A DNA stretch of 64,000 nucleotides from an uncultured Candidatus Saccharibacteria bacterium (GTDB lineage: Bacteria; Patescibacteriota; Dojkabacteria; SC72), in the NCBI GenBank assembly GCA_964610125.1, contig CAZSUV010000001.1, forward strand, positions 253,240 through 317,239. Direction: 5' to 3'. Shown here in pieces: positions 32,319-55,538 of the stretch. The position numbers and the translations under genes are program-made. Every line of letters begins with the position of its first letter. Position 1 is the first letter of the stretch. The notes beneath the pieces were generated by a model. That model ran no database searches. It was not told the origin of the DNA and saw nothing but the letters and a program-made list of their open reading frames with translations.

Positions 32319-34079
32319 TTATAACTTATCTAATAACGTTCTAATCTCTTCAATACCATTATTCCAGAACTCTTTTTTAGTAATATCTATTCCAATACCT
32401 TTAAACAATTCTTTAGGTGATTGTGTAGAACCAGATTCCATAAACCTCTTAACATATACTATATTCTTTTTATCATCCTTTACCATCTTTTGTAAAGCTT
32501 TAGATATTAACAATCCACTAGCATATGAATATACATAAAAGAACCTTCTAAAATGACTAACATATATCCATCCATTCCTCATACTTTCATCTTCTAATAC
32601 TGCATCACCAAGATATGACTTCATATGCTTACAGAACAGATCAGAGATATATTCTTTAGTTAGGAATCCTTTCTCTCTGAAATCATGATGTAATTCAGTT
32701 TCAAAATTGTAGAATGCCACCTGCCTAAATATAGAAGCAGTATCATCATGTATTTTTTTGTCTAAGATGGCCTGTATAACTTTTTCATCGGTTGTTTCTT
32801 TAAGTATTTCAGTTAATACAAAATCCTCAAAGAATGTACTAGCTATTTCTGCTAAAGATGTCGGATATCCGTCATTCAAGGCATCCTGTTTCTTTGCTAA
32901 CTCTGTATGTACCCCATGACCACTTTCATGAGCAATAGTTAAAACAGATTCTAATTGATTTTTGTGATTAAGAAGAATAAACGTAGGTAAATTCCTGTTA
33001 ATGGATGTACAAAATGCGCCCCCAGTTTTTCCCTTTGAAGGATATACATCATACTGCCCATTCTTCAAAAAAGTATTAACGATTTCTTCAAATTTAGAAT
33101 CAAGATTCTTGAATGTTTTTTTTACAAGCTCCATAGCTTCAGGAAATTCATATATCATTGATGCTCCCTGTAGAGGGACATTGCGTTCGTGGTATCCTAA
33201 TTGTTTTACACCCATTAATTCTGCTTTTCTCTTGTAATATGCTCTTGTGACATCAAAATTCTCAGTTACTGTTTTTACTAATGTATCTACTACCTCTGAC
33301 TCAATATCATCTGCTATATGTCTTGTTAAATCTGGCCTTGATATCTTTCTGTAATCATCTGAAATCTTTTTGTCTTCCAATACTGAATTAATCTCAAATT
33401 CAGCAATTTCTACATATTTACTATTTATTTTGTTTTGTTCTTTTGCAGCATAATCTCGAACTTTTTTGTTTTGAGAATCAAGATATTTGTTTACTTCATT
33501 GTAGGTGATTTCCTTCTTTTTAAGCTCTTCATCAAGCACGACCATTTTCTGCTTACTGAGTAATTCTGTAAGCATATTAACCCAGTTTGAATGGGAAGTT
33601 TTAGAAGTTAGATTAAAGACTTTTTCCTCTTTGTCAGAAAGGATATATTTTGATGACAAGAAGGATTGCTCAAGTAAGTGTCTGTATGGTTTTAATCCTT
33701 CGTAGTTCAAGAATTTCCCCTGTCTTGATTTAGGTATTTTTGAAATATTTAAATAGAAGAATTGTATTTCGTTTACTAGTTTTGTATATATATCTTCTAT
33801 TTGATTTAGTCTAGCCTTTATAACTGAATCTGTCTGGTCTAGCTCATTTCTAAGTATGAAGTAATATATGGGTTTGTCACATATTCCTGTGGTTGCACTT
33901 AATTTCTCGGATTCATCTAATGCTTTTCTTAATATTGCTGGATCTTTAGTATATTCCTTGTTAGTTTTCCATTTCTTTACAAAGGTATGTACGTTCTTAG
34001 TGGAGAGATCTATATCCTTTTGGATTTGAGGATCAGTTTCTGATTTATATAGTAGTTTTAGATTCCATTTTTCTATCAT
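32319..34079 (-). CDS. pepF: Oligoendopeptidase F (M3B family)
   Basis: 586 aa; HESGHGVH zinc motif; M3B architecture. Confidence 0.85.
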   Translation of the reverse strand: MIEKWNLKLLYKSETDPQIQKDIDLSTKNVHTFVKKWKTNKEYTKDPAILRKALDESEKLSATTGICDKPIYYFILRNELDQTDSVIKARLNQIEDIYTKLVNEIQFFYLNISKIPKSRQGKFLNYEGLKPYRHLLEQSFLSSKYILSDKEEKVFNLTSKTSHSNWVNMLTELLSKQKMVVLDEELKKKEITYNEVNKYLDSQNKKVRDYAAKEQNKINSKYVEIAEFEINSVLEDKKISDDYRKISRPDLTRHIADDIESEVVDTLVKTVTENFDVTRAYYKRKAELMGVKQLGYHERNVPLQGASMIYEFPEAMELVKKTFKNLDSKFEEIVNTFLKNGQYDVYPSKGKTGGAFCTSINRNLPTFILLNHKNQLESVLTIAHESGHGVHTELAKKQDALNDGYPTSLAEIASTFFEDFVLTEILKETTDEKVIQAILDKKIHDDTASIFRQVAFYNFETELHHDFREKGFLTKEYISDLFCKHMKSYLGDAVLEDESMRNGWIYVSHFRRFFYVYSYASGLLISKALQKMVKDDKKNIVYVKRFMESGSTQSPKELFKGIGIDITKKEFWNNGIEEIRTLLDKL

Positions 34080-34549
34080 TGCTTATTATACCTTAATGTA
34101 AAGACTATGGGAAAGTATTGACAGGATAAAGTTTTGTATAAGTGTGGCGAGGACGCTCACAAAAAGCTAGCACAGAAGGGTGTGAATGGTTAGAGTTAAA
34201 ATACATCTAAACGAGCGAATTTTGCTCTCTTATTTATATTTAGATTCCAATTCACACTCCTCTCAAGAACTTCTGTAGCCTTGCACAATCTCACATATCC
34301 TCTATACATCAATGTTTTTGTGATATAATTACCCACTTTCGCAGAGGAGAGGAAAATAAAACATAACTACGTTGGGTAACAAAGAAATGTCAGTACGAAA
34401 TTCGCTAACAACGTATTATGTTTAGATCTAAAATTGAAAGAATCTGTGAAAAACAAAGGACGGGGGTGCTCATATGAGAATTAGGATTTCATTTCCTAAC
34501 TTTTCTTTCAAATTCACAACACCCCTGTCCATCTTTTCATTTTCTCTCA

Positions 34550-34776
34550 TATATCTGATATAATCATCCTTAATACTTAGATCCAGTAATCACTGGGGAG
34601 TAGTAGAAAGAAAGTATTTCTAAAAAAGAATATGAGTAGAATCTACCGTATGTAAACGAAATATACACAAATGAGAAATAAATAGGGTGGTACCGCGTAC
34701 ACAATGTTCGCCCCTTTCTAAAGATTAGTATATATTAAATATGTATATACCAGTTTTTAGAGAGGGGCTTTTTGTT
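34550..34776 (+). promoter_or_regulatory. T-box riboswitch leader (antiterminator/terminator) upstream of ileS; 5' boundary approximate
   Basis: AAATAGGGTGGTACCGCG at 34681-34698 matches the T-box consensus AGGGUGGNACCGCG. Followed by terminator GCCCCTTTCTAAAG(34710-34723)...TTTTTAGAGAGGGGC(34754-34768) and TTTTTGTTT. Candidate specifier AUC(A) in GUAAUCACUGG near 34587. Confidence 0.6.
34710..34776 (+). terminator. Intrinsic terminator of the ileS T-box leader
   Basis: 14-bp stem with two G.U pairs, 30-nt loop, then a U-tract; the 5' arm is shared with the antiterminator partner of the T-box sequence. Confidence 0.55.
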
Positions 34777-34795
34777 TAAATTAACGATTAGAAAT

Positions 34796-37678
34796 ATGGA
34801 AGATATAAAGATAAAGAAAAATGAAATGATGCCTAATTTCCCTAAAACAGAGGGCGACATATTAACCTTTTGGAAAGAAAAAAATATCTTTCAAAAATCC
34901 ATAGATCAAAGAGACAAAACCAATCCATTTACCTTTTACGATGGACCAATAACCTCAAATAACAAACCACACTACGGACATGCACTAACAATGGTCATCA
35001 AAGATGTAGTTCCAAGGTATAAAACTATGAAAGGATATCATGTAGATAGAAGTCTAGGATGGGATTGTCAGGGAATACCTGTGGAATATGAAGTAGAGAA
35101 GACATTAGGTTTTGAACAAAAAGAAGATATTGAGAAATTTGGTATTGAAAAATTCAATCAGCTTTGTAGAGAATCTGTACAAAAGTATCAAGGAGAAATA
35201 TTTGCACTAACTGAAAGAATGGGAAGATGGGTAAACAAAGATGAAGAATATGCAACCATGGACCCGGCATATATAGAGAGTGTATGGTGGTCATTAAGTG
35301 AGCTTTACAAAAAAGGTCTCCTCTACCAAGGGTACAAAGTAGTTCCTTACTCAACTCGAGCAGGAACTACTCTTTCTAATTCAGAGGTAGCACTTGGTGG
35401 ATACAAAGCCATAGTAGACCCAGCTGTAACAGTCAGCCTAAAATTAAAAAACAGTGATACCTACCTCCTCATATGGACTACAACCCCATGGACTCTACCT
35501 GGAAACCTTTTGGTAGCAGTAGGAAATGATTTTGAATATGTAGAAGTTGAACACAAAGGACGAAAATATATCGTTGGAAAAGCATTGGGGGAGAAAATCT
35601 TTGGAGAAGATTACAAGGTATTGAGTGAAATGTTAGGTAAAGATTTAGTTGGGAAGGAATATGAGCCATTGTATCCATACTATGCCCAAAAGAGTAGCGA
35701 AGGTTGCTTCAGAGTAGTACATGCTGAGCATGTAACTCTCGAAGATGGTACAGGATTGGTACATCAAGCACCATATGGAGAAGAAGATTTCGCATTAATG
35801 ACAGGTATGGGAATTGAGATGTTTGACTACCTTGATGATCAAGGGAATATGAAAGATGAGATTACTCAATTTGCAGGAATGTTCTACAAGAAGGCAAACA
35901 AATATGTAATGCAAGATTTGGAAGAAAGAGGATTACTCTTTGCACATGAAGATCATGAACACCAAATGCCAATGTGTTGGAGAACAGAAACACCATTGAT
36001 ATACAAACCAATTAAGAGTTGGTATGTAAGAGTCTCAGAAATTAGAAAGCGAATGACAGAGGAGAATAACGAGATAAATTGGATACCAGAGCATATCAAG
36101 GATGGAAGATTTGGGAATTGGTTAGCAGATGCAAGAGATTGGGCTTTAAGTAGAAACAGATATTGGGGAACACCACTTCCTGCTTGGATTTGTGACAAGT
36201 GTGGAGCAACTGAAGTATTAGGATCGTTTGCAGAGATTAAGGAAAAATCAGGAGTAGAAATTACAGATCCACACAAACCATTTGTTGATGAAGTTAAATA
36301 TGCTTGTTCAAAATGTGATGGAGAAATGCACAGAGTGACTGATGTCATTGATGTATGGTATGACTCAGGATCAATGCCATTTGCTAGATTCCACTATCCA
36401 TTTGAAAACAAAGAAAAATTTGACCAAAAGTATCCTGCAGAGTTCATAGCTGAAGGAGTAGATCAAACCAGAGGTTGGTTCTATACATTACATGTATTAG
36501 GTACTGCACTCTTTGATCAAAAAGCTTTCAGAAATGTTGTTGTAAATGGTTTAGCTTTGGCTTCAGATGGATCAAAGATGTCGAAGAGTAAACGAAATTA
36601 TACCGATATTAATATAGTCATAGATCAGTTAGGAGCAGATTCAATGAGACTCTACTTCTTAAGTTCTCCAATTGTTCATGGGGAAGAAGTAATTTTCAAT
36701 GAGAAGTTCTTAAAGGAGATAATGACATCTGTAATGCTTCCATATTGGAATTCTGTTAAGTACCTTTTAAGCTACCAGAGTGAGTCAAAGCTTAAGAATA
36801 TCAGTGAACTAGATTTAAGTAATGTAATGGATAAATGGATTGTAGCGAGGCTTCACAAGACAATAGGGGATGTTACAACAAATATGGATGCATATGATTT
36901 ACAACCAGCTACAAAGAGTATCTTTGATTTAATTGATGATCTTTCTAAGTGGTATATCAGAAGATCAAGAGAAAGATTTGTAAATGGAGATGTTAATGCT
37001 TTAGATACACTGCGATATGTATTGGTAGAAATCTCCAAGCTATTAGCTCCATTTGCGCCATTCCTTGCTGAATCTGCATACCAGACATTGGTATCTGGTG
37101 AAAAAGAATCTGTACATCTTGAAGATTTTTCAGTTGTGGAGGGAAGCAAACTGGATGAAAAACTTCTAACAGATATGGATAATATTAGAAAGATATGTTC
37201 ATTAGGATTAAACATCAGAGATGAGAACAGGATAAAGGTACGACAACCATTAGCACAAGCATTAGTACCTGTTGAAGATTCAGAATTACAAGAAATTGTA
37301 AAAGGAGAACTAAATGTAAAAGAGGTTGTCTATTCTAAAGAAGCCAAAGAAGGAGAAGGATTAAAATCTCAAAATGATGGAACAGTATTTGTTACATTAG
37401 ATACAAATATATCGGATGAACTTAAAGCAGAAGGATTCTTAAATGAACTAACCAGAGGATTACAAGTAGCTAGAAAAGAAAGTGGATGCCAAGTAGGTCA
37501 GGATATTACCGTTAAATATCAGACTGAGAGTAAAGAAATTGAAGAACTAATATCTTCTCATCTTGAAGAACTTGAAAAGGTAGTATTAGCAAAATCATTC
37601 GAGAAAGTTAAAACTTTGGAGAATGGTATAAAGCTTAAACTAGCAGAAGTTGAAGTCTTTGTAGAGATAATAAAATAG
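34796..37678 (+). CDS. ileS: Isoleucyl-tRNA synthetase, type 2 (archaeal/eukaryotic-like)
   Basis: HIGH as PHYGHALT; GWDCQGIPVE; KMSKS as KMSKSKRN; CDKCG...CSKCDG zinc motif. Track start 34772 is TTG inside the terminator U-tract; the first ATG is 34796. Confidence 0.92.
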   Translation: MEDIKIKKNEMMPNFPKTEGDILTFWKEKNIFQKSIDQRDKTNPFTFYDGPITSNNKPHYGHALTMVIKDVVPRYKTMKGYHVDRSLGWDCQGIPVEYEVEKTLGFEQKEDIEKFGIEKFNQLCRESVQKYQGEIFALTERMGRWVNKDEEYATMDPAYIESVWWSLSELYKKGLLYQGYKVVPYSTRAGTTLSNSEVALGGYKAIVDPAVTVSLKLKNSDTYLLIWTTTPWTLPGNLLVAVGNDFEYVEVEHKGRKYIVGKALGEKIFGEDYKVLSEMLGKDLVGKEYEPLYPYYAQKSSEGCFRVVHAEHVTLEDGTGLVHQAPYGEEDFALMTGMGIEMFDYLDDQGNMKDEITQFAGMFYKKANKYVMQDLEERGLLFAHEDHEHQMPMCWRTETPLIYKPIKSWYVRVSEIRKRMTEENNEINWIPEHIKDGRFGNWLADARDWALSRNRYWGTPLPAWICDKCGATEVLGSFAEIKEKSGVEITDPHKPFVDEVKYACSKCDGEMHRVTDVIDVWYDSGSMPFARFHYPFENKEKFDQKYPAEFIAEGVDQTRGWFYTLHVLGTALFDQKAFRNVVVNGLALASDGSKMSKSKRNYTDINIVIDQLGADSMRLYFLSSPIVHGEEVIFNEKFLKEIMTSVMLPYWNSVKYLLSYQSESKLKNISELDLSNVMDKWIVARLHKTIGDVTTNMDAYDLQPATKSIFDLIDDLSKWYIRRSRERFVNGDVNALDTLRYVLVEISKLLAPFAPFLAESAYQTLVSGEKESVHLEDFSVVEGSKLDEKLLTDMDNIRKICSLGLNIRDENRIKVRQPLAQALVPVEDSELQEIVKGELNVKEVVYSKEAKEGEGLKSQNDGTVFVTLDTNISDELKAEGFLNELTRGLQVARKESGCQVGQDITVKYQTESKEIEELISSHLEELEKVVLAKSFEKVKTLENGIKLKLAEVEVFVEIIK

Positions 37679-55272: not shown

Positions 55273-55374
55273 ATTGTTGAATTGGAAATAATATATTATT
55301 TACCTTCCTATAGCATGATTATATCACTTGAACCTTTGCTTTATATACATTTGATTATATAATGCAATATGTTA

Positions 55375-55538
55375 CCTAAACCTATTTATTTAGGCATGGT
55401 GATGAAAATCAAATCCAGGTCAGTGCGTTAGGCGGTCTTCCGTCTTGCAATCACTGACCTGGTTACTAGGGGAAACTCTAGTAGGTGAAGTAGCAATACT
55501 CACCTGTGAGCGGGAGACCACTTGTCTCAAAGCTCACA
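55375..55538. other. Highly structured ~165-nt element: five consecutive hairpins (candidate ncRNA or 5'-UTR element)
   Basis: Hairpins: CCTAAA/TTTAGG; CCAGGTCAGTG...CACTGACCTGG (11 bp, inner GGCGG-tctt-CCGTC); TACTAG/CTAGTA; GGTGA/TCACC; TGTGAGC...GCTCACA (inner GAGAC/GTCTC). Confidence 0.3.

Follow-up and report, generated by a model that had tools for sequence, protein, structure and literature searches.

A probable tRNA-Ile-responsive T-box riboswitch with an ultrashort Stem I and an intrinsic terminator upstream of a type-2 ileS gene in Candidatus Dojkabacteria

The stretch of DNA analyzed here (the window, 64,000 nucleotides [nt] of contig CAZSUV010000001.1) carries a type-2 isoleucyl-tRNA synthetase (IleRS) gene, ileS, and directly 5′ of it, at 34571-34777 on the forward strand, a leader of about 205 nt that is very probably a tRNA-Ile-responsive T-box riboswitch of the ultrashort-Stem-I type (Class III), controlling ileS via transcription attenuation. 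The host belongs to Candidatus Dojkabacteria (WS6, candidate phyla radiation [CPR]), and the nearest homologs of the window IleRS carry the names Candidatus Dojkabacteria or candidate division WS6. This IleRS scored 871 bits against the NCBIfam ileS equivalog model TIGR00392 (cutoff, 621) and contained the Pfam domains tRNA-synt_1, Anticodon_1, and DUF5915 (the type-2 C-terminal domain). Among Protein Data Bank (PDB) structures it matched the T. thermophilus enzyme with 782 bits, eukaryotic enzymes with 747 to 777 bits, and P. megaterium IleRS2 with about 710 bits, whereas IleRS1 structures reached only 272 to 331 bits; the product is nearer to IleRS2 and eukaryotic enzymes than to IleRS1 and is a type-2 enzyme.

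An annotation made earlier from the letters of this DNA (the original prediction) had proposed, at 34440-34776, a T-box controlling a type-2 ileS of a CPR-like genome within an unusually long intergenic region. The domains, PDB matches, and homologs described above bear out the type of enzyme and the kind of genome. The predicted start of the element was about 130 nt too far upstream, as the element begins at about 34571. The intergenic region indeed measures 692 nt up to the TTG at 34772, an in-frame start listed by the open reading frame (ORF) finder upstream of the real ATG at 34796, and 716 nt up to that ATG; this length implies no long leader, however, because a promoter adjoins Stem I. 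The features of the leader and its gene, all on the forward strand, are as follows.

34556..34564: extended −10 promoter, TGaTATAAT, a conserved motif; predicted transcription start at about 34570-34572
34574..34602: Stem I, ultrashort, 29 nt in all, from the Rfam alignment and covariation
34574-76/34600-02: base helix of Stem I
34580-81/34598-99: K-turn-like GA/GA of Stem I
34582-86/34593-97: distal helix of Stem I, 5 bp
34587-92: apical loop of Stem I, the hexanucleotide UAAUCA
34589..34592: specifier codon AUC (Ile) and conserved 3′ purine A
34603..34646: Stem II, from the Rfam alignment, with base helix 34603-06/34643-46 and distal hairpin 34614-19/34628-33
34607-13/34634-42: S-turn strands of Stem II, AAAGAAA and GAGUAGAAU
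34647-49/34656-58: Stem IIA
34651-54/34664-67: pseudoknot IIB, loop UGUA with UACA, covarying complementary pairs
34668..34683: unstructured linker in place of Stem III, with purines GAG (34673-75) and AA (34680-81) kept
34684..34715: antiterminator, with helix A1 (34684-87/34712-15), bulge UGGUACC (34688-94), and helix A2 (34695-97/34709-11)
34710..34777: intrinsic terminator, hairpin 34710-34768 followed by the U-tract 34769-34777 (TTTTTGTTT)
34796..37678: ileS, type-2 IleRS with the canonical HYGH signature, from TIGR00392, Pfam, and PDB matches

The T-box model of Rfam, RF00230 (gathering score, 93 bits), was compared with the leader region, and the whole 64-kb window was scanned permissively against all 4,227 families. 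RF00230 matched at 34569-34718 with 47.8 bits (E = 2.6e-9 when the region alone was searched and 2.1e-7 over the whole window), and this was the sole T-box match in the window. The alignment was good across Stem II, IIA/B, and the T-box/antiterminator, while 74 Stem I positions of the model were collapsed to 4 nt and Stem III was reduced to nothing; the score is low because Stem I is ultrashort. The check that the original prediction had proposed thus had a divided outcome, highly significant by E value and below the gathering score. At Rfam gathering thresholds, the window yielded only tRNAs and a LOOT RNA and no T-box. Nine relatives scanned in the same way gave subthreshold RF00230 scores of 42 to 57 bits, with Stem I likewise collapsed from 74 positions to 4. 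Standard threshold-based Rfam annotation systematically misses such elements.

The conservation of the leader was assessed across the phylum. Scanning of one genome per species gave 36 Dojkabacteria ileS loci, and a pattern scan of metagenomes gave further leaders; a strict TGGNACC pattern finds only 9 of the 36 loci, since most relatives carry UGGUAAC, and looser patterns were used. The leader was found 5′ of ileS in 32 of the 36 genomes. The other four (L023, L025, L027, and L037), in which no leader was present upstream of ileS, have lost it; in L023 and L037, ileS stands behind a spacer of about 110 nt with its own promoter-like site, and in L025 and L027 another gene immediately precedes it. 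A total of 48 unique leaders were aligned with MAFFT. The pairing counts given below come from this alignment, in which the helices agreed structurally throughout apart from distal Stem II and IIB; these two were analyzed by anchored extraction. Taken together, the leaders show the motifs, every helix, the pseudoknot, both of the alternative folds, where the promoter lies, and the link to ileS. The antiterminator-state structure (scored over Stem I, Stem II, IIA, an extra hairpin described below, Stem III, A1, and A2) was 94.8% paired, and 26 of its 36 pairs were changed on both sides; these values were reached in 0 of 500 shuffles, and slid controls were 36 to 50% paired. For the terminator, 96.8% of cells were paired and 14 of 20 pairs showed double changes (slid controls, 45 to 58% paired). 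Outside Dojkabacteria, contigs L062 (13419-13659), L057 (6091-6400), and L070 likewise carried leaders that combine an ultrashort Stem I and an AUC-A loop with the S-turn of Stem II, a T-box core, and a terminator. The L062 leader precedes a truncated ORF at the contig end, and the L062 arginyl-tRNA synthetase (ArgRS) groups with Nomurabacteria/Paceibacterota, so that the architecture is not confined to Dojkabacteria.

The 5′ half of the leader has the organization of a Class III T-box. The extended −10 motif TGnTAnAAT was present 3 to 8 nt 5′ of the aligned leader in 47 of the 48 leaders (TAnAAT in all 48) and in the window lies 6 nt upstream of the T-box element; because this conserved promoter stands immediately 5′ of Stem I, the leader is about 205 nt and not longer. 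In Stem I, 7 of 8 pairs showed double changes, e.g., alignment columns 5 and 33 (C-G in 35 leaders and U-A in 13) and columns 17 and 24 (G-C in 43 and A-U in 4); columns 13 and 28 were paired in only 20 of the 48 leaders, and the GA/GA of the K-turn-like motif was present in 30. The original prediction had placed a candidate Ile specifier AUC(A) near 34587 and had suggested a comparison with the ultrashort Stem I of Actinobacteria. In the window, GUAAUCACUGG (34586-34596) contains AUC at 34589-91 and A at 34592, within the hexanucleotide apical loop of the 29-nt stem. Across the alignment this loop reads NNAUCA, with AUCA invariant in 48/48 leaders, all of which lie 5′ of proteins passing the ileS equivalog model. 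Stem II base pairs also covary (columns 35 and 78, U-A in 44 and C-G in 4; columns 36 and 77, G-C in 33 and A-U in 14), and the distal Stem II hairpin pairs in all 48 leaders with varied pair types. The S-turn strand AAAGAAA was found in 47 of 48 leaders, and AGUAGA was near-invariant. Stem IIA varies between G-C (23 leaders), U-A (14), and A-U (8) at columns 82 and 91, and the pseudoknot IIB recurs at the same position as UGCUA/UAGCA, UACUC/GAGUA, GGUCU/AGACC, GGUAA/UUACC, or GAUA/UAUC. As three-dimensional motifs, the K-turn, the S-turn, and IIA/B are predicted from these sequence features.

In the 3′ half, two folds compete. The T-box sequence AGGGTGGTACCGCG (equivalent to AGGGUGGUACCGCG) is exact at 34684-34697 and matches the conserved 14-nt T-box sequence AGGGUGGNACCGCG. 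Helices A1 and A2 were 100% paired in the 48 leaders; A1 was almost invariant, and the first A2 pair (columns 176 and 201) was A-U in 26 leaders and G-C in 22. The 7-nt bulge read UGGUACC in 21 leaders and UGGUAAC in 27, with UGGU invariant in 48/48, which predicts an A73 discriminator in tRNA-Ile. The 5′ arm of the terminator hairpin, GCCCC (34710-14), doubles as the 3′ strand of helices A1 and A2. The constrained antiterminator fold had an energy of −6.7 kcal/mol, the terminator hairpin had a minimum free energy (MFE) of −33.6 kcal/mol, and the fold of the whole leader had a z score of −6.4. In the triplet formed by columns 176, 201, and 260, 26 leaders have A/U/A, the other 22 have G/C/G, and mixed combinations do not occur. 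Column 201 thus covaries with both of its alternative partners, which is direct evidence that selection acts on both mutually exclusive folds. The original prediction of a T-box with a near-consensus core, a UGGU bulge, and a classic antiterminator/terminator switch therefore held, given the RF00230 match, the strong covariation, the exact core, the invariant UGGU, the shared GCCCC arm, and the three-way covariation in a region that folds into an antiterminator.

As the hairpin with its run of U residues competes with the antiterminator and leaves the ribosome-binding site uncovered, we infer that control is exerted by transcription attenuation. Class III or ultrashort T-boxes have been described as mostly or entirely translational (PMC10482949, PMC7583486, and bioRxiv 10.1101/2023.02.28.530422), and the 3′ arm of the window hairpin is purine rich (AGAGAGGGG, 34759-67), so that the element might instead sequester a ribosome-binding site and act on translation, like the actinobacterial ultrashort ileS T-boxes. 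This we consider highly improbable. A conserved run of at least five U residues, the signature of an intrinsic terminator, directly follows the hairpin in the aligned leaders; the hairpin ends 28 nt before the ATG, leaving the start region free; no Shine-Dalgarno-like sequence is present within 34778-34795; the hairpin covers no ribosome-binding site; and the purine-rich arm lies too far upstream of the ATG to act as one.

Under transcription attenuation, tRNA binding, discrimination between charged and uncharged tRNA, and termination itself would proceed by analogy with known T-boxes. Transcription would start about 6 nt past the conserved extended −10 promoter. Stem I (the K-turn and the 5-bp hairpin) would fold in the nascent RNA, as would the S-turn-containing Stem II and the pseudoknot IIA/B. 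In the manner of the actinobacterial ileS T-boxes whose structures are solved, Stems I and II and IIA/B would together create a groove in which the anticodon stem-loop of tRNA-Ile(GAU) is clamped onto the AUC; the tRNA elbow would not be contacted. If the tRNA-Ile is uncharged, its 3′ ACCA would pair with the bulge UGGU and stabilize the weak antiterminator (about −7 kcal/mol), leading to read-through and synthesis of IleRS. Otherwise, the 3′ strand of the antiterminator would join the far stronger terminator (about −34 kcal/mol) with its U-tract, and transcription would stop near 34773-34777.

The window leader differs from most of its relatives between IIA/B and the T-box. The hairpin of Stem III is absent from the window and from 14 other leaders (15/48), and in the window clade its place is taken by a linker of 24 to 25 nt (34659-34683 in the window) with an MFE of 0.0. 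The 33 other leaders fold a covarying Stem III of 7 to 9 bp whose loop reads AGUAAU, and an extra hairpin accompanies it in 32 of them. This extra hairpin, which covaries as well, lies between IIA/B and Stem III in most Dojkabacteria leaders (the two hairpins together, alignment columns 107-129 and 137-156; e.g., L010:2263-2476). L036 is without the extra hairpin only, L040 and L052 are without Stem III only, and the window clade is without both. All 15 Stem III-less leaders read RAG-N4-AA-NN-AGGG; the deletion is therefore clean and leaves both purine flanks in place. In the 13 Stem III-less leaders of the window clade, the aptamer was 98.3% and the terminator 100% paired, with compensatory changes, and the flanking proteins of the most distant members of this clade were only about 65% identical.

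Several points weigh against a functional T-box controlling ileS in the manner set out above. The RF00230 match does not reach the gathering score (47.8 versus 93 bits). The window element has neither a long Stem I with an elbow platform, held in PMC7583486 to be necessary for transcriptional T-boxes, nor Stem III, which PMC7583486 counts as integral to the discriminator and indispensable for binding of the tRNA 3′ end. In PMC7583486, the aminoacyl group is said to be sensed sterically, primarily by the G-U wobble at the base of A2, but the bulge-proximal A2 pair is G34695-C34711 in the window and is G-C in 22 leaders, A-U in 26, and never G-U. No tRNA-Ile gene, which would give the anticodon and the discriminator base, was found in the window or in 24 scanned loci.

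The absence of Stem III and of the G-U sensor, together with the unstructured linker at 34659-34683 and a first A2 pair that is G-C, could mean that the T-box of the window clade is crippled: blind to charging and acting as a constitutive or tRNA-abundance-dependent attenuator, as might be expected if Stem III is indispensable for binding of the tRNA 3′ end (PMC7583486). We regard this as very unlikely. Every one of the 15 leaders without Stem III retains the RAG and AA purine flanks, which make the actual contacts; UGGU, the bulge, and AUCA remain invariant; compensatory changes have preserved the helices in lineages so far apart that their flanking proteins share only about 65% identity; and a decaying element would not retain 85% identity together with 98 to 100% pairing. 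Because the Stem III-less leaders are 98 to 100% paired with compensatory changes despite flanking proteins that are only about 65% identical, they are, as judged by their sequences, not decaying.

A T-box leader starting at the Stem I-adjacent promoter leaves a variable, noncoding spacer of about 450 nt; the stretch 34132-34555 lies outside the leader. The spacer contained no ORF of more than 46 amino acids (aa) and no conserved ORF, and neither the spacer nor the longer inserts of relatives matched an Rfam family at an E value of ≤0.01. That the spacer is a decayed tandem copy of the leader was considered and rejected, as local alignment scores were no better than those of shuffles. Promoter-like sites at 34121-34149 and 34321-34329, and upstream segments that fold better than shuffles (z scores of −2.7 and −3.9), would fit a single leader spanning the whole 716-nt intergenic region, with upstream promoters reading into the T-box and upstream hairpins adding a layer of control. 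Such an arrangement is very unlikely, given that essentially every leader has the conserved promoter adjoining Stem I, whereas the upstream sequence is not conserved even where IleRS is 97% identical and varies in length from about 370 to 1,500 nt. Only 34170-34269 is shared (with two relatives), the entire intergenic region is just about 300 nt in many relatives, and a terminator-like hairpin (34213-27) intervenes. In close relatives, the spacer measures about 370 nt (L002), about 480 nt (L004 to L006), or 1.25 to 1.5 kb (L003, L007, and L100).

Within the spacer, a hairpin of about 100 nt (34170-34272; arms 34174-87/34250-63) encloses the terminator-like hairpin 34213-27 and lies downstream of a promoter-like TTGACA-17-TATAAG site (34121-49). 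L004 (2158-2253) and L006 have a counterpart with 86% conservation, located at the 3′ end of a noncoding insert of about 480 nt, and the hairpin may be a small RNA gene or its remnant. A second copy of an extended −10 motif, TGATATAAT (34321-29), is followed by 220 nt (34336-34555) that fold with a z score of −3.9 and include an 11-bp stem (GGACGGGGGUG at 34459-69 with CACCCCUGUCC at 34520-30); no ORF, no Rfam match, and no homolog among the relatives' loci compared was found for 34321-34555. At the equivalent place, three relatives with 96 to 97% identical IleRS carry 1.25 to 1.5 kb of noncoding DNA (L007:768-2262, L003:985-2227, and L100:277-1562). These inserts share a block of 570 to 850 nt with 75 to 83% identity, without an ORF of more than 79 aa or an Rfam match at an E value of ≤0.01, and the block may represent a large RNA of a new kind, a pseudogene, or what is left of a mobile element.

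The leader is coupled to more than one form of the synthetase. One leader family precedes three IleRS2 lineages, for which the comparisons made gave only 36 to 39% mutual identity; each of the three has the type-2 domain and scores above the ileS equivalog cutoff. The loci are as follows.

Group a, window 34796-37678: canonical HYGH; T. thermophilus and eukaryote-type structures score highest
Group b, L054:944-3823, L069, L074, L077, L112, L061, L085, and L079: GVHH; P. megaterium IleRS2 scores highest
Group c, L040:619-3588, L052, and L107: HYAS or HYGS; eukaryote-type structures score highest

Synteny was identical throughout (GlxRS ... M3 peptidase on the reverse strand, leader, ileS, CarD on the reverse strand, and CofD), and the neighboring proteins were 58 to 71% identical to those of the window. 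Divergent IleRS sequences within identical synteny indicate that the ileS ORF was replaced in situ, and the leader subtype does not track the IleRS group. The GVHH of group b corresponds to the mupirocin hyperresistance signature GxHH; in experiments, a swap to this signature increased the Ki for mupirocin by as much as about 1,000-fold (PMC10485003).

Two further observations concern the rest of the window. The upstream neighbor of the leader region, the M3 oligopeptidase gene (32319-34079, reverse strand), has a TTCCCA-17-TATAAT promoter (34077-34113, reverse strand) whose −10 box ends just 5 nt before the ATG, and because of this short distance, its mRNA is suggested to be leaderless. The LOOT RNA (RF03000) lies at 55373-55504 on the forward strand and scored 59 bits, above its gathering threshold of 46.4.

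Class III T-boxes are described as having a short Stem I that lacks the elbow platform and carries the specifier in an apical loop of five or six nucleotides, together with a K-turn, the S-turn of Stem II, and IIA/B (PMC10482949), and all ultrashort T-boxes known regulate ileS (bioRxiv 10.1101/2023.02.28.530422). The window element has the short Stem I, the hexanucleotide loop, the K-turn, the S-turn, IIA/B, and the ileS target. The Shine-Dalgarno sequestrator typical of Class III is not among its features; a U-tract follows the hairpin, and no Shine-Dalgarno sequence is covered. According to PMC7583486, control of transcription by a T-box generally depends on the elbow platform of a long Stem I, and an ultrashort Stem I goes with translational control; Classes III and IV are said to "mostly regulate translation" (PMC10482949). 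With the Class III ileS T-boxes of Actinobacteria (Mycobacterium tuberculosis, M. smegmatis, and Nocardia farcinica), the window element shares a platform-less short Stem I, AUC in a hexanucleotide apical loop, the K-turn, the S-turn of Stem II, IIA/B, a GAG/RAG linker before the discriminator, the canonical bulge, and the type-2 ileS. It differs from them, in a comparison with published descriptions, in its intrinsic terminator and U-tract in place of a Shine-Dalgarno sequestrator, its CPR host, the absence of Stem III from the window clade, and the extra hairpin of most relatives. With Class I transcriptional T-boxes (Bacillus subtilis tyrS and the bulk of RF00230), it has in common the competition between antiterminator and terminator, the 14-nt T-box, the UGGN-NCCA pairing, the S-turn, and IIA/B, but it has neither Stem III nor the G-U wobble at the base of A2, which are Class I features. 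The Class II glyQS T-boxes (Bacillus subtilis and Geobacillus kaustophilus) are likewise naturally minimal transcriptional T-boxes with equal antiterminator/terminator logic. Their reduction is the opposite one, however, since glyQS drops Stem II and IIA/B and keeps a long Stem I and Stem III, whereas the present element retains Stem II and IIA/B and has lost the long Stem I and, in the window clade, Stem III.

The short-Stem-I model of TBDB was applied only to Actinobacteria and truncated class I matches (PMC7778990). Our literature search on T-boxes in Patescibacteria or Dojkabacteria gave nothing relevant; the primary papers on ultrashort T-boxes were outside its reach, and earlier similar variants are possible. 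Tentatively, and with somewhat less than even confidence, we propose that the window leader is the smallest natural T-box so far (about 142 nt from the base of Stem I to the end of the antiterminator), working cotranscriptionally without the elbow contact, the Stem III hairpin, or the G-U sensor; that the leader is widespread in the CPR (Dojkabacteria and at least one Nomurabacteria/Paceibacterota contig); and that it serves as a fixed socket for exchanged ileS genes with HxGH, GxHH, and HY[A/G]S signatures.

T-boxes are the classic example of one RNA reading another. Current models set long-Stem-I T-boxes, which act on transcription through fast tRNA capture via the elbow, against short-Stem-I T-boxes, which act on translation, and regard Stem III as essential to the aminoacylation sensor. 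A conserved, covarying family that combines an ultrashort Stem I with a terminator, and within it a subclade from which Stem III, but not its purine flanks, has been deleted, tests both rules with natural sequences. Should these leaders discriminate charged tRNA, kinetic (transcriptional) control would not require the elbow platform, and of Stem III only the purine flanks, not the helix, would be needed. Family and subclade together also provide structural and engineering studies with a very small scaffold. For the organisms themselves, the in situ exchange of IleRS2 variants behind the leader suggests that natural IleRS inhibitors exert selection in these communities, and CPR/Patescibacteria, whose gene regulation is almost uncharted, would use tRNA-sensing riboswitches.

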